64,000 nt of DNA, taken from the NCBI GenBank assembly GCA_048617235.1, contig JBMCHT010000001.1, positions 118,043-182,042 on the forward strand. Reading direction: 5' to 3'. Shown one piece after another: positions 1,084 through 50,706 of the stretch. The stretch is from Patescibacteria group bacterium (GTDB taxonomy: Bacteria; Patescibacteriota; Minisyncoccia; Phycocordibacterales; XYD1-FULL-46-19). Every line of letters starts with the position of its first letter. The stretch's first letter is position 1. A model generated the notes under the pieces. It did no database searches and was not told the origin of the DNA. It saw only the letters and a program-made list of their open reading frames with translations. The position numbers and the translations under genes are program-made.

Positions 1084-2112
1084 TTAGACGAAATGAAGCA
1101 TCTCTTCTTCCGACTCGAAAAAGAGATGGCCGGAGGCCACAGCCAGGGAGGAAAAAGCCCCCACTCGACCGGCTTGTTGGAAATTGCAAGTAGCTCGGGC
1201 GGCTGCCAACAGAATCCGAGCGGTGGCTTCGGCATTGCTTTGCCACTCCACCCGAAACTCCATCAAGCCGTTATCGCTTTTGGCGATAACCAGCCCGTCA
1301 TGGGGCATCCCCGGAAAACGATGGTAGAGTTCCTCTTGCAAGACAAACTCCACCTCTGTCTGAAACGGAGCGAAATAGCCGGGCATGCCGATTATAGCCT
1401 CCCGAATTCGCTCCCGTTCCCTACTGTCTACTGATTCCGTAGCTACAATACACTGTCGCCAGTGCATGTCGCCGGGGGTAAAAACCGGATTTTCTCCGGC
1501 TCGCACCCACTCAATCGCTTCTGGTTTGGCGTGAGTGAATTGACGGGCATCCACCACCCCCGGAATACTCCGGATGGCATCGGAATGCCCCATAGAGAGA
1601 CCTCCTGTCTTCGTCAAACCGTAAAAGGCATACGAGCGAACCCCTTCACCCAAAACGGCTTGAAAAAGAGCTCTCATGTTGGAAAAGAGCCCGGGATCCC
1701 AGCCTTGGCAAACCAAGGCGGTGTGACCGGTGGCTTTGGCCACCAGATCCATCTGGCGGAAATAGCCGATCCGGGGCAGGCCGGTCTCTTCATCTAAATA
1801 CTCACCGACATGGTCGTGAGTATCGAATGAATCAACCGTATTGGCCAAACCGGCCCAATACGGTCCCTGAACCGGCAAATCTGCCTTGGAGCCGCCACAC
1901 AAGATGGCCACATCGGACTTTTTCGCCAAAAGAGACATCATCCTACTGCCCCTTTCAGTTCCCACAACCAGATTCTCCGGAGCCCCGTCCCTGATGGCTC
2001 TCACCGGATTTCTGGTGACAATCCCCCTTACCCAAATCTTGGGGTGTATCTTTCTAGTCAACCGAAAGACGGTCTGGCCAATGTTGCCAAACCCCACAAT
2101 CACAATATCCAT
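1084..2112 (-). CDS. ddh: meso-diaminopimelate D-dehydrogenase (Ddh)
   Basis: 342 aa. N-terminal Rossmann motif IVIVGFGNIGQ. Motifs matching Corynebacterium Ddh: QGWDPGLFS, LSMGHSDAIRSIPGV, HWRQCIVA, GMPHDGLV. GC content is about 55% against about 35% in flanking genes. Confidence 0.8.
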   Translation of the reverse strand: MDIVIVGFGNIGQTVFRLTRKIHPKIWVRGIVTRNPVRAIRDGAPENLVVGTERGSRMMSLLAKKSDVAILCGGSKADLPVQGPYWAGLANTVDSFDTHDHVGEYLDEETGLPRIGYFRQMDLVAKATGHTALVCQGWDPGLFSNMRALFQAVLGEGVRSYAFYGLTKTGGLSMGHSDAIRSIPGVVDARQFTHAKPEAIEWVRAGENPVFTPGDMHWRQCIVATESVDSRERERIREAIIGMPGYFAPFQTEVEFVLQEELYHRFPGMPHDGLVIAKSDNGLMEFRVEWQSNAEATARILLAAARATCNFQQAGRVGAFSSLAVASGHLFFESEEEMLHFV

Positions 2113-4483: not shown

Positions 4484-4822
4484 TCAAATAATCAAACAAC
4501 CACACTGTTTCTGTTTTAAAAGCTCTTTTTGTTCTTTTGGGGTATTAATAAAAATTCTTTGTTTAATTTGACCTTTGGCTAATTTTTCATCCAATGGTGA
4601 ATAATGATTATAGCCCCGCTTTTTAAATTCTTCAATTAATTTTTCATGTCTTAAATAAAGAGCCTTTTCTTTACCAACCCAACGTAAAGTTTCCGGATGA
4701 TAAGCATAACCTCCTGTCAATTTATGCTTGGTTAAAATATTCCACAAACCGTGTAATTCCCGGTGCTCGGCTAATAAATGCTTCCGACATAAATATTTTG
4801 GATGAATATCCCAAATGCGCAT
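4484..4822 (-). CDS. pyrimidine dimer DNA glycosylase-like protein (T4 endonuclease V / Pyr_excise-like family)
   Basis: 112 aa. N-terminus MRIWDIHPKYLCRKHLLAEHRELHGLW aligns with the T4 endoV / PBCV-1 PDG N-terminus (MTRINL..L.DQHLMAEYREL). ...LYLRHEKLIEEFKKRGY resembles ..FLRKRQIELIAECLKRGF. Confidence 0.5.
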   Translation of the reverse strand: MRIWDIHPKYLCRKHLLAEHRELHGLWNILTKHKLTGGYAYHPETLRWVGKEKALYLRHEKLIEEFKKRGYNHYSPLDEKLAKGQIKQRIFINTPKEQKELLKQKQCGCLII

Positions 4823-6856: not shown

Positions 6857-7019
6857 TTAAGACAAAGCTATATAATAAAAGAAAAAGGCCCCTTAGGTAT
6901 TTAGCCGTTCGGGTCCTTTTTCGTCTTGATATCTATATAGTTACAAATTTACAGAAAAAGTCAAGTATTATAGGTAATGTGTACACTCTTTTGGCACACT
7001 TTATTTTTCTTTACATTAG

Positions 7020-7334
7020 CTCCGCGGGCAGGACTCGAACCTGCGACCAATCGATTACACTTATCCTAAAATTACTTCTAGGGGTGGACTATATCATCAT
7101 CATATTTGTAAAAAACAAACTTAGATGCGAGGCGCTTCCCCTCCGATATTTTCGGAGAGTACTCCTAAAAAGGATAGTCTCTGAACCTTCCCTATCTATA
7201 ATTATTATCAGGGCTTGGCTGCTGATTGCCCTATTAGGGTTTCCAGCAATTCACCTCGTTATTCACCTTTAGATTTCTCTAAAGGGCTGCAACTAACTTA
7301 CAGTCGACCGCTCTACCAACTGAGCTACCGCGGA
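7020..7334 (-). tRNA. tRNA-Asn(GUU) interrupted by a group I intron in the anticodon loop. Exon 1 is 7300..7334, exon 2 is 7020..7057.
   Basis: Minus-strand 5' exon: UCCGCGG-UA-GCUC-AGUUGGUA-GAGC-G-GUCGA-CUGU. This gives a canonical D-arm, G18G19 and U33. Minus-strand 3' exon: UAA-UCGAU-UGGUC-GCAGG-UUCGAGU-CCUGC-CCGCGGA-G. This gives the T-arm GGUUCGAGUCC and an acceptor fully complementary to the 5' strand. Joined, the loop is CUGUUAA with U1-A72 and G73, matching E. coli tRNA-Asn. A separate intact tRNA-Thr(UGU) exists at 50634..50706, which argues against the Thr alternative. Confidence 0.65.
7058..7299 (-). ncRNA. group I self-splicing intron, about 242 nt, no ORF
   Basis: The 5' splice site follows U35. 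P1 forms between exon CUGU and the intron GCAG, with a U-G wobble at the splice site. P2 hairpin is CCUUUAGA-GAAA-UCUAAAGG. P3 is UGAAU/GUUCA. The catalytic-core P7 is ...UUCAGAGACUA... paired with ...UAGUC.... P8 hairpin is UCCU-UUUU-AGGA. A terminal omega-G sits at 7058. Confidence 0.65.
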
Positions 7335-7397
7335 ATATTTAATTTAATAAAGACCAACTGTCTAAATACTAGCAAAAAGAAATAAAAAAGCCAAGAG

Positions 7398-8090
7398 ATG
7401 TTATATAATACAATTATGGAAAACATAATAGCCATCTGGAAACCTGCCGGCCCTACCTCTCACGATATTATCAATCAATTACGCCGACAAACCGGGATTA
7501 AAAAAATCGGTCATGCCGGGACTTTGGATCCTTTGGCTGAAGGAATTTTAGTGGTAGGTATCGGTCGGGCAGGAACTAAACAATTAACTGAATTGGTTTC
7601 TAAAAAGAAAGAATACCAAGCGATTATTTGTTTGGGAGCGGAATCGGAAACCGATGATGCCCAAGGCCCGATTACTCCCCGACCCTCTGTTATTATTCCG
7701 AATTTAAATCAAATTGAAACTGCTATTAAAAAATTTATTGGTCGAATTAAACAACAACCGCCCATATATAGCGCTCTTAAAATTAAAGGCCGGCCAGCCT
7801 ATAAAATAGCCCGGGGTGGAGAAAAACCGGTTTTAAAAACCAGATCGGTGAATATTTTTAAAATTGATATTCTTTCTTATGATTACCCGAATTTAACTTT
7901 AAAAATAGAAACCGGTTCGGGAGTCTATATCCGGGCTCTGGCTCGAGATTTGGGTGAGGTATTGGAAACCGGTGCTTATTTAGCCCGATTAACCAGAACC
8001 CGAGTCGGTAGCTTTGATAAAACCAATTGTGTTAGGATAGATGAATTGCCAGATAATTATAAAAAAGAATATGCCTCAAAAACAAACTAA
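7398..8090 (+). CDS. truB: tRNA pseudouridine(55) synthase TruB
   Basis: IAIWKPAGPTSHDII and GHAGTLDPLAEGILVVGIGRAGTK, i.e. the HxGTLDPxAxGxL motif. The true start is probably the ATG at 7416 (MENIIAIW). Confidence 0.85.
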   Translation: MLYNTIMENIIAIWKPAGPTSHDIINQLRRQTGIKKIGHAGTLDPLAEGILVVGIGRAGTKQLTELVSKKKEYQAIICLGAESETDDAQGPITPRPSVIIPNLNQIETAIKKFIGRIKQQPPIYSALKIKGRPAYKIARGGEKPVLKTRSVNIFKIDILSYDYPNLTLKIETGSGVYIRALARDLGEVLETGAYLARLTRTRVGSFDKTNCVRIDELPDNYKKEYASKTN

Positions 8091-9882
8091 AGATAAGATT
8101 TTAAAATGGAATTTAAACATTTTGTATAAAAGTTTAACCGATCCTCAAATTGAAAAAGATTTAGCTAAAGGTAGAAAGTTGGCTCTTGGTTTTGCCGGAA
8201 AATATAAGAAAAAACAAGGTTGGGAAACTTCAGCTTCTCAATTAAAAAAAGCTTTGGCAGAATATTTTAAATTAGCCGAATGGGGGGTAGATAACCAAGC
8301 GGGATACTATTTATCTCTAAAGCAATCTTTAGATTTACAATCTCCGCAAATTCAAGCCAAACTTAATTTATTAATCAAAGAAGCTACGGAAACCGCCAAT
8401 CTGTTAACCTTTTTCGATTTACGCCTATCACAAATTAATAAAAAAGATCAACAAAAATTATTAAAAAATCCTTCATTAGCTTATTATCAACCATTTTTAA
8501 AACAAATCTTCACCTCTGCTCCCCATCGCTTATCCGAAGAAGCAGAAAATGTAATCAGTTTAAAACAATCTCCGGCTCATGCCGATTGGGTTCATTTAAC
8601 CGAAGCCGGTTTACACAGTCGCCAAGCTAAACTACCGGGACCGGATAAAAAAACAAAAGACCGATCTTGGTCGGAAATTTTAAGTTTAACCGCTCATAAA
8701 CAAAAAAAGATTCGTCAACCGGCCATTAAAGCGGCCGAGCGAATATTAGCCGATCAAACTGAAGTAGCTACTGCTGAAATAAACGCTGTTTTAAAAAATA
8801 AACAAATAAATGATAATTTACGCAAATTTAATAAAGCCGAAGAAGCCAGATTATTAGGGGATCAGATATCAATTAAATCGGTTAACAGTTTATTGGAGAC
8901 CATTAAACAAAATTACAAATTGAGTCACCGTTTCTATCAACTTAAAACTAAATTACTAGGACAAGATAAAATAACTTATCCGGAAAGAAATATTAGTATC
9001 GGTCAATTACCGGATAACATTTCTTTTAACGATAGCTTGAATATGGTTAAAGAAGCTGTAAATCAAATAGATCCTCAATTTTCAGATATTTTGACAAACC
9101 TGGTAAAAAACAGACAAATAGATTCTCACCCTAAAGCCGGAAAAACCGGTGGCGGTTTTTGTGCGCATTACCTACCGCATTCCCCCACTTTTATTTTACT
9201 CAATCATACCGGTCGCTTAACCGATGTCTTAACCTTGGCTCATGAATTGGGTCACGCCATTCATAACCAATTGATGAAAGAACAACCGGCACCTTATTTT
9301 GATCATTCTTTAGCTTTAGCTGAAACAGCTAGCACTTTATTGGAAAGCCATACTTTTGATTATCTTCTTAACCAATTATCACCTGAACAAAGATTAACTC
9401 TTTTGATGGAAAAATTAAATTCAGATGTAGCTACTATTTTTCGTCAAACCGCTGCCTATTTATTTGAAAGAGATTTACATCAAAACTTCCGCCAAAGCGG
9501 TTATTTGGCCACAAAAGATATTAATCGCTTGTTTACTCTGAGAATGAAAGCTTATTTGGGTTCGGCAATTAAAACAGATTCTGAAGTTAATAACTGGTGG
9601 ATTCATTGGAGTCATTTTAGAAGTTTCTTTTATGTTTATTCTTATGCTTATGGTTTTTTAACCGCTCAAGCCATTAAAGATAAAATAAATAATAACTCCT
9701 CAGAAATAGAAGCAGTTAAAAATATGTTAGCCACCGGAGGTACTAAAACTCCAACGGAAGCTCTAGCTATGATTAAATTAAATCCGGAAAAAAATGATAT
9801 CTGGCTCAAAGGCTTACAAGATTTTGAAATTAAATTAAAAGAAGCTGAACGCTTAGCTAAAACCTTCAAAATTAGTAAATAA
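8071..9882 (+). CDS. pepF: oligoendopeptidase F (M3 family metallopeptidase)
   Basis: About 600 aa. Zinc-binding HELGHAIH (HExxH) with the M3B-like context TGGGFCAHYLP. Start chosen at MPQKQTK (8071) to remove the overlap with truB. Confidence 0.75.
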   Translation: MPQKQTKDKILKWNLNILYKSLTDPQIEKDLAKGRKLALGFAGKYKKKQGWETSASQLKKALAEYFKLAEWGVDNQAGYYLSLKQSLDLQSPQIQAKLNLLIKEATETANLLTFFDLRLSQINKKDQQKLLKNPSLAYYQPFLKQIFTSAPHRLSEEAENVISLKQSPAHADWVHLTEAGLHSRQAKLPGPDKKTKDRSWSEILSLTAHKQKKIRQPAIKAAERILADQTEVATAEINAVLKNKQINDNLRKFNKAEEARLLGDQISIKSVNSLLETIKQNYKLSHRFYQLKTKLLGQDKITYPERNISIGQLPDNISFNDSLNMVKEAVNQIDPQFSDILTNLVKNRQIDSHPKAGKTGGGFCAHYLPHSPTFILLNHTGRLTDVLTLAHELGHAIHNQLMKEQPAPYFDHSLALAETASTLLESHTFDYLLNQLSPEQRLTLLMEKLNSDVATIFRQTAAYLFERDLHQNFRQSGYLATKDINRLFTLRMKAYLGSAIKTDSEVNNWWIHWSHFRSFFYVYSYAYGFLTAQAIKDKINNNSSEIEAVKNMLATGGTKTPTEALAMIKLNPEKNDIWLKGLQDFEIKLKEAERLAKTFKISK

Positions 9883-9899
9883 TTATTCTAATAATTTAT

Positions 9900-10169
9900 A
9901 TGCCTGATTCTTTAGAAAAAATTAAAAGCAATGGTCAAAATCTAAAAAAAGAAGTTGCTACCAGGATTAGTGGTTATATTACGGCCGCTTTCGGTTTGGT
10001 GGCCGGCTTGGCTTGGAATGATGCTATTTTATCATTAATAGATTTATGGTTTCCTTTGGATCGCAATCAAATTTTAGCCAAATTTATTTATGCTTTAGCC
10101 TTAACTGTTGTATTGGTTTTAGTATCTATTTATTTGGTTAAATTTTTTGATAAAAAGGATAAAAATTAA
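9900..10169 (+). CDS. small membrane protein, hypothetical
   Basis: 89 aa with two predicted TM segments (ISGYITAAFGLVAGLAW; FIYALALTVVLVLVSIYLV). Confidence 0.45.
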   Translation: MPDSLEKIKSNGQNLKKEVATRISGYITAAFGLVAGLAWNDAILSLIDLWFPLDRNQILAKFIYALALTVVLVLVSIYLVKFFDKKDKN

Positions 10170-10172
10170 AAT

Positions 10173-10754
10173 ATGTTTTCAAAAAATTCCACAGCAGATA
10201 AAACTGTCACTTGGCCTACAGCTGGTTCTCTGATAAAAAAAGGAAAAATAGGAATTATTCCAACCGATACTCTTTACGGTTTGGTGGCTCACATTAATAA
10301 ACCCAAAGCTATAAAAAAAATATATGAAATTAAGAATCGGCCAAAAAACAAACCTTTAATTGTTTTAATTGGTTCTTTAGAGCAACTTAAAAGATTACCC
10401 TTAGCTACCAAAAAAATAGATTATGAAATATTAAACACTTATTGGCCCGGTCCGGTCAGTTTAATATTACCCACCACTAAAATATTAAAACCAATCAGCT
10501 CTAATAAAACTTTAGCAATCAGATTGCCTCGTTCATCTAAACTAAGGAAATGGCTATGCCTTTATGGGCCTGTTGTCGCTCCCAGTGCCAACCCAGCCGG
10601 AAAAGAACCGGCTCGAACTTTAACTGAAACTAAAAAATATTTTAATCAGCGAGTAGATTTTTATGTCCCGGCAAAAAAACGCTTAACCAAGCCCCCTTCT
10701 GCTTTAATAGATTTAACCGTTTCTCAATTACAGATTTTACGTCCTTTTAGTTGA
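10173..10754 (+). CDS. tsaC: L-threonylcarbamoyladenylate synthase (TsaC/YrdC/Sua5 family)
   Basis: GKIGIIPTDTLYGLVA is the YrdC signature. The 193-aa single-domain size fits. Confidence 0.8.
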   Translation: MFSKNSTADKTVTWPTAGSLIKKGKIGIIPTDTLYGLVAHINKPKAIKKIYEIKNRPKNKPLIVLIGSLEQLKRLPLATKKIDYEILNTYWPGPVSLILPTTKILKPISSNKTLAIRLPRSSKLRKWLCLYGPVVAPSANPAGKEPARTLTETKKYFNQRVDFYVPAKKRLTKPPSALIDLTVSQLQILRPFS

Positions 10755-10782
10755 TAATCTTTGAAGTTTAATTTTAGATTAT

Positions 10783-10791
10783 GGTATAATA
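10783..10791 (+). promoter_or_regulatory. extended -10 promoter element (TGgTATAAT)
   Basis: tggtataat sits immediately upstream of the ATG at 10797, with about 6-nt spacing. This implies a leaderless or near-leaderless transcript for the tRNA-binding protein gene. Confidence 0.35.
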
Positions 10792-10796
10792 GTCAT

Positions 10797-11117
10797 ATGG
10801 TTACTTATGAACAATTTTCAGCTCTTGATTTAAGAGTTGGCACCATAATAGAAGCGGAACCGGTAATTGATGCCGATCGTCTTTTACGGTTAGTGATTGA
10901 TTTGGGTCACGAAGAACGCCAAGTGGTAGCCGGTATTGCTGAAGAATATGAAGCTGAGAAATTAATCGGCACCCAAGTAGTTTTAATAGTTAATTTAGAA
11001 TCCAGAGAAATTAAAGGTTTGGAAAGCCAAGGTATGATTTTAGCCGCCAGTGGAGATAATGGCCCGGTTATTTTAATGCCGGAAAAGCCGGTAGCCGATG
11101 GTACTACGATTAAATAA
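10797..11117 (+). CDS. tRNA-binding domain protein (CsaA/YgjH-like, EMAPII-type OB fold)
   Basis: FSALDLRVGTIIEAEPV...ADRLLRLVIDLGHEERQVVAGIAEEYEAEKLIGTQVVLIVNLESREIKG is the Myf/tRNA_bind domain. Confidence 0.7.
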   Translation: MVTYEQFSALDLRVGTIIEAEPVIDADRLLRLVIDLGHEERQVVAGIAEEYEAEKLIGTQVVLIVNLESREIKGLESQGMILAASGDNGPVILMPEKPVADGTTIK

Positions 11118-11124
11118 TTTAAAT

Positions 11125-11676
11125 ATGAAAAATTTAAACAAACATTCTTTAGCTATAAATCTTATTTCCTTATTATTTTTGGGAATTTTAATTTTACTTT
11201 TAATTCCTTTTACTAAAAAAGTAGATAATGAGATTGATAAAGCGGACTCTGAAAGAAAAATTGAAGTGGTAGATTTTCAAACTTGCCGTTTGGCCGGTTT
11301 TTTTGTTGATATTTTTTCTTTTCCTCCTGTTTGTATCACTGACGATGGACAAGAATTTATTTTAGACTTAGACGAAGCAGATAAATTATTACCACCCGTT
11401 TTAGATGATAATGGAACAATAATAGATCCAAACGAAGACACACTCTTTTATCCCGGACCTGTAGCTCAAGATGGCTGTTTACCGGCCGGTTGTTCTCAAC
11501 AATTATGTGTAGAAGCGGAAATGGCTCCGGATATTGTAACTACTTGTGAATTTAAGGCCGAATATGCTTGTTATTTACAAGGCGCTGTTTGTGGCCGAAA
11601 TTCTGAAGGAGAATGTGCTTGGTTGGAGACACCGGAATTAAAACAATGTCTTGATAATCCCCCTCCACTTAATTAA
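11125..11676 (+). CDS. hypothetical exported/membrane-anchored Cys-rich protein
   Basis: N-terminal TM helix (LAINLISLLFLGILILLLIPF) and a C-terminal domain with about 9 Cys (CITDDGQEF...CLPAGCSQQLCVEAE...CEFKAEYACYLQGAVCGRNSEGECAW). Confidence 0.45.
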   Translation: MKNLNKHSLAINLISLLFLGILILLLIPFTKKVDNEIDKADSERKIEVVDFQTCRLAGFFVDIFSFPPVCITDDGQEFILDLDEADKLLPPVLDDNGTIIDPNEDTLFYPGPVAQDGCLPAGCSQQLCVEAEMAPDIVTTCEFKAEYACYLQGAVCGRNSEGECAWLETPELKQCLDNPPPLN

Positions 11677-12077
11677 TTCAAACGACGCCAATAATACCAA
11701 AAAACAGACAAGCCCATTAAGGCTAAAGTAATATTTAAAGCTTGAATTGTTGGCCATTGCCAATAAAAAAGCCAAGCAAATTGAACAAAAACAATCAGAC
11801 CCAAATAACGCACCGCCTTAGACGGTAAAAACCAAAGACAAAAACTCAATCCCAAAAACAAGGACAATATTCCCAACCATAAAACCAAAAATTCCGATTC
11901 AAAACCGGATACTAAATTTATTATTCGAGCCGGCCAATAAGCGGTGGAAATTAAATCTGATCGAGAACCGGCCTCGGTTACCAAATAATAACCATTAATA
12001 ATATAGTAAACCCCCAAACCTAATCTAACAAAAGTTTCACCTTTTATTTTTTTTAATTTTTTTCTAATCGTTTCCAT
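11673..12077 (-). CDS. hypothetical integral membrane protein
   Basis: 134 aa with 4 predicted TM segments. No catalytic motif. Confidence 0.45.
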   Translation of the reverse strand: METIRKKLKKIKGETFVRLGLGVYYIINGYYLVTEAGSRSDLISTAYWPARIINLVSGFESEFLVLWLGILSLFLGLSFCLWFLPSKAVRYLGLIVFVQFAWLFYWQWPTIQALNITLALMGLSVFWYYWRRLN

Positions 12078-12180
12078 TTGTTCATTTTAAAACAAGACAA
12101 AAAATAAAACAATCAATCCGTTGCTTCTTTTGTCTTTTTTTGTTAAATTTAAACCTTAAAAGTAATTAAAATAAAAATAT

Positions 12181-12891
12181 ATGAACTGGGAAAAATTGAG
12201 TATTCCAATAGCTATAATAGGAGCCGGCTTAATTTTAGGAGCGGCGGTTTATTTTCAACCACAATTTAGTCCAACTGAGGATAATTTGGCAGCAGTCGGC
12301 GATTTAGATCAAAGTGACATCAGTTTGGAAAATGTTCGACCACTGACAACCGAAGATAATATAAAAGGATCTTTGGAAGCTCCGATAATTATTATAGAAT
12401 ATTCCGATCCTGACTGTTCTTTTTGCCATCGTTTTCATAACACTCTAAAAGAAATAGTTGATTTATATGATGACAATCAAGTAGCTTGGGTTTATCGCCA
12501 TTTTAATGTTTTTGGATCGGCTTCGGCTCAAAAATCCATCGCTTTTGAATGTGCCGGCGAATTAGAAAATAATTCCGGTTTTTGGTCTTATTTAGAGGCT
12601 TTTCATCAGGGTATAGATCAAAACAATAAAGCCGGTAATGTAGACGAATTGACATCCTTAGCCGGTGACATAGGATTAGATACTGCAGATTTTAGAGAAT
12701 GCTTAGAATCTGAAAGACCTAAAAATGTTATAGAAACAGATACCGATAACGCCATCGCCAGTGGTGGCTCCGGAACTCCTTTTTCTTTAATTAAATTACC
12801 TTCAGGAGAAATAGTGGAATTAGGTGGAGCTGTCCCCACTGAAAATTTAATTGAAATAATAGATGAATTATTAGAAGCTCCGGAAGAATAA
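12181..12891 (+). CDS. DsbA-like thioredoxin-fold thiol-disulfide oxidoreductase
   Basis: N-terminal TM anchor. CxxC active site in YSDPDCSFCHRFH. Thioredoxin-like length. Confidence 0.65.
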   Translation: MNWEKLSIPIAIIGAGLILGAAVYFQPQFSPTEDNLAAVGDLDQSDISLENVRPLTTEDNIKGSLEAPIIIIEYSDPDCSFCHRFHNTLKEIVDLYDDNQVAWVYRHFNVFGSASAQKSIAFECAGELENNSGFWSYLEAFHQGIDQNNKAGNVDELTSLAGDIGLDTADFRECLESERPKNVIETDTDNAIASGGSGTPFSLIKLPSGEIVELGGAVPTENLIEIIDELLEAPEE

Positions 12892-12895
12892 AAAA

Positions 12896-14209
12896 TTAAT
12901 ATCCGGACAATCTATCCGCTTTTCCATGTAAACGAATCTTTTCATGAGCTTTGGCTTCTATTTGCCTAATGCGCTCCCTGGTTACACCAAATTCTTTACC
13001 TACCTCTTCCAGAGTTCGCATAACACCATCATCCAAACCATGGCGCATTGCTAAAATCTTTCTTTCTTTAGGTGTTAAATCGCTTAGAATTTCATCAATT
13101 TGATCTCGTAAAATTCTTCTGGAAACATCTTGTTCCGGTGGGTCTATTTTATCATCAGGCACAAATTCTCCCAGGGAAGATTTATCTTCATCTCCGCTTT
13201 CTATTGATTTATCCAAAGAAGCCGTACTTTGATCTATTTTTTCAATGGCATGGATTTTATGTAAATCCATATCCATTTCTGTAGCCACTTCTTGTGGTAG
13301 GGGTTCTCGTCCCAAATCCTGAGATAGACGCCTCACTACTTGTTTGTATTTAGTTATGGTTTCCACCATATGTACCGGAATTCTAATTGTTCGCGACTGG
13401 TCTGCCAAAGCCCTGGTAACCGCTTGACGGATCCACCAAGTGGCATAAGTTGAGAATTTATAACCTTTACGCCAATCAAACTTTTCTACCGCTTTGAAAA
13501 GACCGATATTACCTTCTTGAATTAGATCTAATAAAGATAAATCGGAACTGCGATTAGCATACTTTTTGGCAATGGAAACCACCAGACGTAAATTAGCATT
13601 AGCTAATGTTTTGCGAGCCTCTTCATCTCCTTCTAAAATCCGTCTGGCTAAATCTTTTTCTTCGGCAGCTGTTAATAAACGATGACGACCAATTTCTTTT
13701 AAATAAATCTGAACCGAGTCCAATCCACCCCCATGACTTTGGTTAATTGAAAAATTTAACATTTGATCATCTGCTTCTTCCAACAAACTGCCTTCTTCCA
13801 AAATATCTATCCCGGCTTCTTCTAATTTATCATATAAATTATCCAAAAAATCCAAATCATTTTCTATAACCGGAAATTCATTTAAAAGTTCACTATAAGT
13901 TACAAATCGACGGCCGCGGCCTTTACGTATAAGATTGGAAGTTTTTTGCATTATTTCTTCCGGTTTTATTTTAGACCCGGTAGGAGAAACTTTCCTTTTC
14001 CCAACCGATTTTTTAACCGAATTTTTAGTAGCTGGTTTAGTGTTTTTTTTAGTTTTAGCAGGAGTATTTTTTTTGACAGTTTTGGATTTTACGTTTTTGG
14101 CACTCTTGGTAGTAATCGATTTCTTCTTGGCTTTAGTGATAGGAGACTTTTTTTTAGCGGAAGTGGTTTTTTTAGATTTAATGGTATTTTTTTTGGAAGA
14201 TGTAGCCAT
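12896..14209 (-). CDS. rpoD: RNA polymerase sigma-70 factor RpoD with a lysine-rich N-terminal tail
   Basis: Region 2/3/4 motifs: [51 protein letters not shown] and [23 protein letters not shown]. The N-terminal roughly 80 aa are K/T/S-rich ([25 protein letters not shown]...). Confidence 0.9.
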
Positions 14210-14246
14210 AAGTTAATATATATTAAGATGATAAAATTGATAAAAA

Positions 14247-16001
14247 TTAATTGAAATATTGATTTCTGAGCTCAGCTATAGTCTGAGTAATATCTTGACA
14301 CCTTTTTAAGTGTTTGTCTACTGATGCTTGATCCTCTTGTTTTTCCGCCGGTCCTATTTTTTGCTCTTCTTGCTTCCTTTTCTGCTCCCAATAATAAACA
14401 TGAGCCCTACCTACCACTTCTTGCCATAAAATTTTAGTTAAAGGTCCAAATTTTTCCACATACTCTTCTATTAAAAACAAAAGGGGTTCTTTTTGATCTT
14501 CATAATTAGCTTGTAAATTATCCTCTTCTTTTATGTCTTCCAATAAAGATCGGGCTTCTGTTTGATAATCAAAATCGTGATTGGTGGTTGTTTCCAACCA
14601 AAACCACCAAGCCCAGAAATATTGTAATGGATTATTAACTAACTGTTCTTTTTCTTCTGTTACTTCTTCCTCTTTTTTAATAGTAAACCGATTAAAATTT
14701 AACTCTTTTAAATCTTGCCAGATCGCCTCTGTCGGCATTTGCAATTTATCTGCCACCTCCATTACCACTGTCGCTTTTTCCACTTGACTGGGTATACTCA
14801 TGATGGCCGGATAAACTTCTTGTTTAATTAATTTTCCCAACTGTCTTTTATCTTGTCCAGCTGTAATTATTGCAGTTTTTAAATAAAAATTAATTATAGA
14901 ATCAGCTTGATCTAATAAGTATCGCCACTCGGCAATATCTTCTTTGATAATATCTGCCGGATCCCGACCCGGGGGTAAAATTAAAGCTTTAACTTGTAAC
15001 CCGGCTGCCAGTAGAGCTTCGGCGGATTTTTTAACCGCCGCCTGACCGGCTTTATCTCCATCAAAAGCCAAAATAATTTCATCGGTCAATCTACCTAAGG
15101 TTTTTACTTGCTTATCTGTCAAGGCGGTTCCGGAAATAGCTACCGTATTGGTCCAACCGGCTTGATGGCACATTAAAAGATCCATCTGACCTTCAACCAC
15201 CAAGCAATTATTATGCTCCCTAATTCCTTGTTTAGCCCAATTCAAACCATACAATAAAGAAGATTTATCATAAATATCTGTCTGGGGTGTATTGATATAT
15301 TTAGCTTCTACAGACTGGGTTTGATTACTAAAATCCAATAACCGACCGGAAAAGCCCACCGGTCGTCCGGAAACATCCAGTAAAGGAAACATTAAACGGG
15401 AACGAAAACGATCAAAAACACGACCGTTTTTTTGGCTTTTAATAGCTAAACCGGAACCGACTATTACCTCATCATTTATTTTTTGAGATCTTAAATAAGT
15501 AACCAATTTCTGCCAATCCGCCTCAGCCCAACCTAAACCAAAAGCCCTGATAGTTTTTTCAGTTAAGCCTCTATCTTTTAAATATTCCCAGACCGGAGTT
15601 TGTGGTTGTAAGCGATTAATATAATAATGTCCGGCCAATTTAATCGCTTGTAATAAATTTTCTCGATGATCTCCCTTTTTACCATCATAAGCTTCTATTT
15701 CCACTCCAGCCTTACGAGCTAAAATTCCCAACGCCTCTTTAAAATCCACTCCTTCTATTTCTTGAACAAAATTAAACATATCTCCAGTTTGACCGCAACC
15801 AAAACAACGATAAGATTGTCTATTAGGAGAAACAAAAAAAGAAGGCGTTCTCTCATTATGAAAGGGGCAACGAGCTTTAAAATTAACTCCCGCTTTTTCC
15901 AATTTAATATAGGAATCCACCACTTCCACTATATCCAATCTATCTTTTATTTTTTCAACTGAAGAAGATGACATAAACACATTATTAACCGATTGACTCA
16001 A
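14247..16001 (-). CDS. dnaG: DNA primase DnaG
   Basis: Zinc ribbon CPFHNERTPSF...CFGCG. The Toprim region includes VVEGQMDLL and ILAFDGDKAGQ. Confidence 0.9.
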   Translation of the reverse strand: MSQSVNNVFMSSSSVEKIKDRLDIVEVVDSYIKLEKAGVNFKARCPFHNERTPSFFVSPNRQSYRCFGCGQTGDMFNFVQEIEGVDFKEALGILARKAGVEIEAYDGKKGDHRENLLQAIKLAGHYYINRLQPQTPVWEYLKDRGLTEKTIRAFGLGWAEADWQKLVTYLRSQKINDEVIVGSGLAIKSQKNGRVFDRFRSRLMFPLLDVSGRPVGFSGRLLDFSNQTQSVEAKYINTPQTDIYDKSSLLYGLNWAKQGIREHNNCLVVEGQMDLLMCHQAGWTNTVAISGTALTDKQVKTLGRLTDEIILAFDGDKAGQAAVKKSAEALLAAGLQVKALILPPGRDPADIIKEDIAEWRYLLDQADSIINFYLKTAIITAGQDKRQLGKLIKQEVYPAIMSIPSQVEKATVVMEVADKLQMPTEAIWQDLKELNFNRFTIKKEEEVTEEKEQLVNNPLQYFWAWWFWLETTTNHDFDYQTEARSLLEDIKEEDNLQANYEDQKEPLLFLIEEYVEKFGPLTKILWQEVVGRAHVYYWEQKRKQEEQKIGPAEKQEDQASVDKHLKRCQDITQTIAELRNQYFN

Positions 16002-50265: not shown

Positions 50266-50633
50266 TTCGTGAGCCGGAGAGAGGACTCGGTGTCAGCTCA
50301 CCTGGCTATAATTCTTCGCTTTGCTTGAATTCTAGCCGGTGGCTCCTACCCGGGCTCGCGGTCTCGCTCAGCTCGACAACGCTCCGCCTTTCTCGTCCTC
50401 ACGGATGAGTATAAATACTCATCCTTCTCCGGTCTCACTCACGATGTTCGTGAGCCGGAGAGAGGACTCGGTGTCAGCTCACCTGGCTATAATTCTTCGC
50501 TTTGCTTGAATTCTAGCCGGTGGCTCCTACCCGGGCTCGCGGTCTCGCTCAGCTCGACAACGCTCCGCCTTTCTCGTCCTCACGGATGAGTATAAATACT
50601 CATCCTTCTCCGATCTCACTCACGATGTTCGTG
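50266..50633. repeat. two tandem 181-bp GC-rich direct repeats, each carrying a copy of the tRNA-Thr 3' end (att-like)
   Basis: The segment cgtgagccggagagaggactcgg recurs at about 50271, 50452 and, within the tRNA, 50632. The period is exactly 181 bp. The two full units differ by a single base (ccggtctc versus ccgatctc). Unit GC is about 55%, and each unit carries an internal perfect hairpin gatgagtat-tta-tactcatc. Confidence 0.8.
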
Positions 50634-50706
50634 AGCCGGAGAGAGGACTCGAACCCCCAACCTACCGCTTACAAAGCGGTTGCTCTACCAATTGAGCTAC
50701 TCCGGC
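50634..50706 (-). tRNA. tRNA-Thr(UGU)
   Basis: Minus strand: GCCGGAG-UA-GCUC-AAUUGGUA-GAGC-A-ACCGC-UUUGUAA-GCGGU-AGGUU-GGGGG-UUCGAGU-CCUCU-CUCCGGC-U. This is a full cloverleaf with anticodon UGU. Confidence 0.85.

Follow-up and report, generated by a model that had tools for sequence, protein, structure and literature searches.

Williams (2020, bioRxiv 10.1101/2020.01.27.920355) expanded the four classical settings of tRNA introns to 21. One of these classes interrupts tRNA-Asn between positions 35 and 36 and, as cited by Nakagawa et al. (mSystems 2026, PMC13011429), is named Asn.4Ug in that survey. The gene described here has its intron in the same place. It lies in a 64,000-nucleotide (nt) stretch of DNA, referred to below as the window, from a Patescibacteria group bacterium (assembly GCA_048617235.1, contig JBMCHT010000001.1, positions 118,043 to 182,042 of the forward strand). 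Positions 7334-7020 on the minus strand of the window are very probably a tRNA-Asn(GUU) gene of this Patescibacteria bacterium, split between U35 and U36 by an IA-like group I intron of 242 nt that has no open reading frame (ORF).

The closest described systems are those of Nakagawa et al., who found 15 tRNA-Asn(GUU) and 3 tRNA-Asp(GUC) genes with group I introns at 35/36 among 95 complete Patescibacteria genomes (PMC13011429). Such genes are reported to be often missed, or miscalled as tRNA-Thr(UGU) interrupted at 33/34, an ambiguity that is visible in Table 1 of that paper. With GTP, the intron of GCA_016700035.1 was shown to splice itself out in vitro: sequencing of the product placed the junction at 35/36, and changing the omega-G to C blocked the reaction. 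Subgroup IA was assigned to 25 of the 28 introns at 35/36, none of the Patescibacteria tRNA introns was assigned to IC, and an HNH endonuclease was reported in the family. The full sequences are given in Table S3, where homology between the window intron and the entries from Paceibacteria can be seen directly, and the window pre-tRNA is 72% identical to that of GCA_016700035.1.

The window intron is a further member of this published and experimentally validated family, a correct call and not a new discovery. The original prediction, made from the sequence alone, had suggested that the insertion site might be new. It was right that the site is not a classical one (Asn-GUU at 35/36, as opposed to the IC3 introns of Leu, fMet, Ile and Arg tRNAs), but the site was already listed by Williams (2020) and described in PMC13011429. 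The locus carries little weight as a discovery: the family's self-splicing and IA-like structure have been published, as have the phylum of its hosts and its insertion site. The additions to PMC13011429 are modest: an exact natural empty-site ortholog, identical exons that occur without an intron, with a short one and with longer ones, and signs of turnover of the endonuclease ORF between copies with identical exons.

The split gene and its predicted spliced product

The gene consists of two exons and one intron, located as follows.

7300-7334, minus strand: 5' exon of tRNA-Asn(GUU), 35 nt (U1-U35), from ARAGORN with introns allowed; contains the 5' strand of the acceptor stem, the D arm, the 5' strand of the anticodon stem and C32 U33 G34 U35
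7058-7299, minus strand: group I intron, 242 nt, no ORF, from RF00028, folding and family homology
7020-7057, minus strand: 3' exon of tRNA-Asn(GUU), 38 nt (U36-G73); contains U36 A37 A38, the 3' strand of the anticodon stem, the variable loop, the T arm, the 3' strand of the acceptor stem and the discriminator G73

On the minus strand, the exon sequences are TCCGCGGTAGCTCAGTTGGTAGAGCGGTCGACTGT (7334-7300) and TAATCGATTGGTCGCAGGTTCGAGTCCTGCCCGCGGAG (7057-7020). Given the raw DNA and its intron option, ARAGORN reports Asn(gtt) with a 242-nt intron at 35/36. The joined halves form a 73-nt cloverleaf that the program also identifies as tRNA-Asn(gtt), and all tRNA stem pairs are standard in the window sequence (21/21). 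An uninterrupted tRNA-Asn(GTT) that is identical to the window splice product at 73/73 positions occupies the same syntenic site in a close relative (L123/L124). CCA is not encoded after G73 (the next bases are CTA), so a CCA-adding enzyme would be needed; the intronless ortholog of L123 likewise has no encoded CCA.

The window tRNA body shares U1-A72, G73 and the loop CUGUUAA with E. coli tRNA-Asn. A BLAST comparison of the spliced tRNA with annotated E. coli genomes is ambiguous for isotype: the best local match is tRNA-Lys (89% identity over positions 4-68), the full-length matches are tRNA-Asn (78% identity), and no tRNA-Thr is among the matches listed. The default ARAGORN scan misses the split gene and reports only a tRNA-Thr(UGU) in the 64-kb window. 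This uninterrupted gene, at 50633-50706 on the minus strand (Rfam, 71 bits), is the sole other tRNA gene in the window, and neither the default nor the intron-aware ARAGORN scan finds a second tRNA-Asn within the 64 kb.

The limits of the gene (7020-7334) had been predicted exactly, as the ARAGORN intron call and the exon sequences show, and the finding stands well clear of chance expectation. The central claim of the original prediction, a tRNA-Asn(GUU) gene split at 35/36 by a compact, ORF-less group I intron, is upheld by RF00028, ARAGORN, covariation and the 73/73 ortholog, and direct comparison bears out the features said to be held in common with E. coli tRNA-Asn (the loop CUGUUAA, U1-A72 and G73).

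The intron has no ORF, as stop codons are present in all three of its sense frames. On the opposite strand, a 97-amino acid (aa) ORF with a GTG start (6979-7272, plus strand) spans the 3' exon and the greater part of the intron in antisense. Without a Pfam match, and lying across a structured RNA that is conserved, it is almost certainly spurious. The gene calls on a matching Logan contig leave 6979-7272 empty, although a gene caller could still annotate the 97-aa ORF.

Intron structure and covariation

The Rfam model RF00028 (Intron_gpI) matches positions 7309-7065 on the minus strand with 108.1 bits (gathering score 50; E-value: 4e-27), covering model positions 1-253 of 253, and this is the only group I intron match in an Rfam scan of the whole window. 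A secondary structure was written by hand and checked pair by pair, and every pair from P1 to P9 is standard in the window sequence. The minimum-energy structure computed by RNAfold for the intron alone, independently of the hand-written model, recovers P2, P3, P4, P5, P6, P7.1, P7.2, P8 and P9, with a z-score of -3.06 relative to shuffled sequences. The elements of the intron, in 5' to 3' order, are as follows.

7287-7303, minus strand: P1, exon C32-U35 and intron A1-A2 paired with the guide UUGCAG (intron 8-13); loop GUUAG
7266-7285, minus strand: P2, CCUUUAGA / UCUAAAGG, an 8-base-pair (bp) stem with a GAAA tetraloop; compensatory changes in 7/8 pairs
7252-7258, minus strand: P3 5' strand, CGAGGUG, paired with 7134-7128
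7185-7248, minus strand: P4-P5-P6 domain; P4 UGCUGG/UCAGCA, P5 CCC/GGG, P6 GC/GU plus CCCU/AGGG
7175-7181, minus strand: P7 5' strand, G-(A)-GACUA with a bulged A, paired with UAGUCC
7139-7174, minus strand: P7.1 (UCCU/AGGA) and P7.2 (CUCUCCG/CGGAGGG), inserted between P7 and the 3' strand of P3
7128-7134, minus strand: P3 3' strand, CGCCUCG
7098-7127, minus strand: P8, outer stem CAUC...GAUG, inner stem GUUUGU/ACAAAU
7086-7091, minus strand: P7 3' strand, UAGUCC
7065-7082, minus strand: P9, CCUAGAA / UUUUAGG, 7 bp with a GUAA tetraloop
7058, minus strand: omega-G, the last intron nucleotide, directly before U36; ends the 7-nt tail after P9

Covariation was assessed in a MAFFT alignment of 48 distinct pre-tRNAs, made up of the window sequence, 8 published sequences and 39 loci from a genome scan (described below; locus L114 was left out). 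The alignment is clean in the core. Standard pairs fill 91.7% of the cells; sliding the 3' partners by 1-3 columns lowers this to 35-44%, and shuffles give 74.9%. Both sides have changed in 66 of the 91 pairs, and none of the 500 shuffles reaches any of the observed measures. In the acceptor stem, whose two strands lie in different halves of the gene and meet across the intron, pairing is 100% and 5/7 pairs covary; the anticodon stem is 98.3% paired with 5/5 pairs covarying (10/12 for both together). When the D stem is included, pairing in the tRNA stems is 98-100% and compensatory changes are found in 13/16 pairs.

Within the intron, P3, P4, P5, P6a and P8 have compensatory changes and are 85-100% paired. 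P3 is paired in 98.5% of cells, has four pairs with compensatory changes and agrees with the Rfam consensus alignment. P4 is 100% paired with 5/6 pairs covarying; P5 and P6a covary as well, and the outer P6 pairs are invariant. The outer stem of P8 is 97.4% paired (3/4 pairs covarying), and its inner stem is length-variable and poorly aligned. Among the peripheral helices, P7.1 is 97.6% paired with compensatory changes, P7.2 is 81% paired with 7/7 pairs covarying, and P9 is paired in 79.8% of cells with all seven pairs covarying. The CG, UA, GC and UG pairs of P1, the last being the U35.G10 wobble at the 5' splice site, are unchanged in 48/48 sequences, and the next pair covaries (GC in 22, AU in 10 and CG in 9). 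U-1, omega-G and U36 are also unchanged in 48/48.

P7, by analogy the probable guanosine-binding helix, has all six of its pairs in 48/48 sequences. These pairs never vary and so provide no covariation evidence. Their invariance is partly a result of construction, because the 18-nt core motif that was used to fetch the 39 loci covers the 5' strand of P7.

Most of the structure given in the original prediction is retained in this model. The acceptor pairing between the halves is standard throughout and 100% paired in the 48 sequences; P1 as CUGU/GCAG with a U.G wobble and P7 as GACUA/UAGUC are each present in 48/48; P2 with its GAAA loop passes both the pair check and RNAfold; and the terminal omega-G is the G at 7058, a G in 48/48. 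The score against RF00028, proposed there as a check, is more than twice the gathering score. Covariance was expected from P3 to P7 and is found for P3, P4, P5 and P6a, but P7, being invariant, is uninformative. The assignment of P3 to UGAAU/GUUCA was wrong, since the real P3 is CGAGGUG/CGCCUCG, which has four covarying pairs and the agreement of the Rfam consensus. In one register (option A), UGAAU/GUUCA is paired in only 62% of cells. In the other (option B, intron 47-51 with 114-118), it is 98% complementary, but its rare variation is one-sided and without compensatory change. The helix uses nucleotides of J3/4 and J6/7, overlaps the covarying P3 and P6 and is considered a misassignment. 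No other error was found among the remaining structural items.

The stretch holding P7.1 and P7.2 is an insertion relative to the RF00028 model. By established classification these helices mark subgroup IA, as Michel and Westhof are reported to have described in 1990. Because P7.1 and P7.2 sit between P7 and the 3' strand of P3, the window intron is IA-like, and not IC3 like the classical tRNA introns. The two helices are treated as a subgroup IA hallmark in PMC3984707 and PMC2248736.

A 4-bp P10 can be drawn by eye between GUUA of the P1 loop and UAAU of the 3' exon, both in the window and in the metagenome copy L138. As also judged by eye, UUA is missing from the P1 loop in most homologs, including the homolog that splices in vitro, and P10 is therefore probably dispensable.

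The proposed pathway for maturation of this tRNA is as follows. The precursor would be transcribed as one RNA, in which the intron would fold into P1-P9 with a P3/P7 pseudoknot and the peripheral helices P7.1 and P7.2. An exogenous guanosine held in P7 would attack the phosphodiester after U35, within the U.G wobble of P1 (exon CUGU, guide GCAG). The omega-G at 7058 would replace this guanosine, and the 3'-OH of U35 would attack after the omega-G, ligating U35 to U36 and restoring the loop CUGUUAA. Ordinary processing of the 5' and 3' ends and then CCA addition would complete the tRNA. The chemistry of group I splicing is reviewed in PMC3984707.

Alternative readings, relatives and genomic setting

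If both splice sites are moved 2 nt upstream, a U still precedes the 5' site and a G is retained at the end of the intron, such that the gene could be taken as a tRNA-Thr(UGU) interrupted at 33/34. ARAGORN accepts this shifted product as tRNA-Thr(tgt) and calls many homologous loci Thr(tgt) i(33), tFind often makes the Thr call too, and the same ambiguity affects Table 1 of PMC13011429. Nevertheless, a tRNA-Thr gene is highly improbable here and is refuted in practice by the intronless syntenic ortholog of L123/L124, to which the Thr product is identical at 71/73 positions and the Asn product at 73/73. In the Thr arrangement, U33 would pair with an A in P1, whereas the invariant U.G wobble is at U35; the end nucleotides (U1-A72 and G73) and the full-length E. 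coli matches listed are those of tRNA-Asn, and the in vitro product of the homolog was sequenced at 35/36 (PMC13011429). The normal tRNA-Thr(UGU) gene at 50633-50706 makes a second one unnecessary. That the two halves are remnants of separate decayed tRNA genes flanking a free-standing group I ribozyme is a formal possibility named in the original prediction, with nothing else in its favour and a negligible probability. Two unrelated fragments are excluded by the acceptor (7 bp) and anticodon (5 bp) stems, which pair and covary across the intron in the 48 sequences (10/12 pairs), and the joined halves equal the intact gene of a relative (73/73).

Several points weigh against a working tRNA-Asn(GUU) gene with a self-splicing intron. 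The window covers only 64 kb of the genome, and a second, intronless tRNA-Asn may lie elsewhere. A scan for promoters and terminators around the tRNA-Asn gene found nothing above chance. P7 is placed by sequence conservation and homology, its pairs never varying, and the catalytic activity of the window copy is predicted from its homology to the member that splices in vitro. The first two of these points would fit a dead or silent locus, in which the intron no longer splices or the gene is untranscribed and a functional intronless tRNA-Asn is located elsewhere in the genome. Such a locus is improbable, however. Every core helix is intact, as are the U.G pair, the omega-G and the tRNA stems; a relative has the same exons in an uninterrupted gene; this is the conserved syntenic position of tRNA-Asn in relatives; and the window holds no other tRNA-Asn. 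A functional tRNA-Asn(GUU) gene split at 35/36 is the preferred reading. It is plausible that this gene is the sole tRNA-Asn copy in the genome, in which case splicing would be essential.

The genome scan with the 18-nt core motif, using one genome per species, returned at least 120 genomes, nearly all of them Patescibacteria metagenome-assembled genomes (MAGs). Host genes were assigned by enumerating splice pairs of the form CTGT|...G|TAA. At least 86 of the 120 species genomes listed have a tRNA-Asn(GTT) with an intron at 35/36. Most of the other 34 listed loci are truncated at an end of the locus or were called Asn(gtt), or miscalled Thr(tgt) 33/34, by ARAGORN, and a few have truly other hosts (Tyr-GTA, Asp-GTC and Phe-GAA). 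Intron lengths among the listed matches are bimodal (209-400 nt and 524-723 nt). The long introns have an ORF of 91-127 aa in the P1 loop with a Cys/His pattern, and one of the two that were scanned gives a borderline HNH match. The closest species representative among the matches listed is a Candidatus Paceibacterota MAG (L042; 80% intron identity). In L114, the P8 loop contains 32 nt that duplicate the T arm and the 3' strand of the acceptor stem of the host tRNA (CTCGGCCTGGATTCGAATCCCAGCTCCCGAGC; 405-436 in plus-strand coordinates, feature on the minus strand).

A metagenome scan with the P9 sequence found 21 contigs, and all 19 that could be resolved are tRNA-Asn interrupted at 35/36. Two of these copies, L138 and L141, have exons identical to those of the window and a 292-nt intron that is 88% identical to the window intron over the aligned positions. 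L138, L141 and L142 (Ga0208904_1000154, Ga0075116_10007318 and Ga0209542_10307954, respectively) have an insertion of approximately 58 nt with two possible hairpins inside the 5' strand of P4 (GAATTG[...]CTGG). Group I introns do not usually have an insertion within the strand of a core helix; at this very point, other members of the family are longer by one nucleotide.

The same 73-nt tRNA-Asn occurs without an intron (L123/L124), with a 242-nt intron (window) and with a 292-nt intron (L138/L141). An intronless tRNA-Asn is also found at the same locus in a Candidatus Vogelbacteria MAG (L125), and in relatives the gene stays at its syntenic position next to truB and pepF. Other tRNA-Asn genes with identical exons differ by an HNH-like ORF of approximately 110 aa in the P1 loop: L129, L134 and L137 (562 nt) compared to L145 (309 nt), and L146 (565 nt) compared to L131 (251 nt). 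A cycle of endonuclease gain and loss would look like these exon-identical pairs with and without the ORF. That the intron itself, which has no endonuclease of its own, is gained and lost here over short evolutionary times is hinted at but not proven, and we regard it as unlikely. There may be an active homing cycle in Patescibacteria communities, in which HNH-carrying siblings, acting in trans, or reverse splicing would mobilise the copies that lack an ORF. Another speculative reading, raised in PMC13011429, is that GTP-dependent splicing acts as an RNA-level control on the supply of tRNA-Asn in these reduced genomes.

In L123, a 63-aa ORF with a GIY-YIG domain (15114-15305, plus strand) lies between truB and the intronless tRNA-Asn (15355-15432), just upstream of the tRNA. 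It could be a free-standing or degraded endonuclease tied to intron turnover, or an unrelated small URI-domain gene.

Judging by its sequence, the host genome is a MAG from Patescibacteria (candidate phyla radiation) that lies near Paceibacteria/Vogelbacteria. The window RpoD is 100% identical to an NCBI entry named "Patescibacteria group bacterium", and its nearest named relatives are from Candidatus Vogelbacteria and Candidatus Paceibacterota (76-78% identity). The neighbours of the intron are ordinary chromosomal genes (truB, pepF, sua5, rpoD and dnaG). The order trmD-rpoB-rpoC-dnaG-rpoD-dsbA...sua5-(DUF5654)-pepF-truB-tRNA-Asn is largely conserved between the window (7020-16001) and loci L122, L123, L125, L127, L150 and L151, and among the 120 listed, more distant intron-bearing loci, dnaG and rpoD are within a few kb of tRNA-Asn in 24-28. 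The tRNA-Asn gene is divergently oriented from truB, which encodes a tRNA pseudouridine-55 synthase.

For many intron-bearing contigs, the MAG of origin has the label "uncultured Gammaproteobacteria" or "Candidatus Saccharibacteria" (TPA bins), and single ones are labelled Omnitrophica or Methanobacteriaceae archaeon. The contigs with such labels include L017, L025, L026, L032 and L036, and also L023, L076 and L110. The labels are probably placeholder taxonomy or mis-binning; a similar remark on an "archaeal" match was made by Williams (2020, 10.1101/2020.01.27.920355).

The window DNA is also present on a contig of metagenome run SRR11308339. The first 2000 nt of the window have a G+C content of 44%, compared to 29-36% in the next 12 kb, and hold an ORF similar to diaminopimelate dehydrogenase (1084-2112, minus strand); this jump in composition may mark foreign DNA. 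A small ORF at 4484-4822 (minus strand) has the pyrimidine-dimer excision domain PF03013 (T4 endonuclease V type) and is 67% identical to one in the Candidatus Falkowbacteria locus L105. The other window ORFs that were compared with these loci have no match or are 31-61% identical.

Comparison with known group I introns

Default tRNA finders miss the split gene, and intron-aware ones often call the family members tRNA-Thr. As a consequence, tRNA-Asn can appear to be absent from genomes of this kind, and both tRNA inventories and estimates of completeness for Patescibacteria are distorted. The empty-site ortholog and the longer sibling introns in identical exons are clean material for the study of intron gain, intron loss and endonuclease turnover.

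Like the subgroup IA introns found in phages and in Bacillota (such as T4 td, Twort orf142, B. cereus nrdF and S-PM2 psbA), the window intron has the P7.1/P7.2 periphery (PMC2248736), but those introns interrupt protein-coding genes. BLAST matches to phage introns are confined to the P3-P7 core, covering 33-39% of the window intron at 72-80% identity, a generic core similarity.

The classical bacterial tRNA introns, of subgroup IC3, are found in tRNA-Leu(UAA) at 34/35 (Anabaena/Nostoc), in tRNA-fMet at 33/34 and in tRNA-Arg(CCU) and tRNA-Ile(CAU) (Azoarcus) at 36/37. They too are compact, mostly ORF-less group I ribozymes of the anticodon loop, and they are self-splicing. The U.G wobble of P1, the omega-G and similar P4-P6 core sequences are common to them and the window intron. 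They differ in the tRNAs and positions that they occupy and in having neither P7.1 nor P7.2, both of which are present in the window intron.

The published Patescibacteria tRNA-Asn introns have the same host gene, insertion point (35/36) and phylum as the window intron. They also share with it P1 (CUGU/GCAG), the omega-G, P7.1/P7.2 and the core sequences GGUGAAUUGC, CAGCCAAG, GGUUCAGAGACUA and GAUAUAGUCC, with a pre-tRNA identity of 67-74% in whole-length alignment. The exact window sequence is not among the published 15, which come from complete genomes only. Relative to the family, the window intron is compact (242 nt, in a sampled range of 209-723 nt). Its P1 loop is minimal, an ORF for an HNH endonuclease is absent, and it differs from its closest relatives in having a P4 that is free of the insertion of approximately 58 nt.

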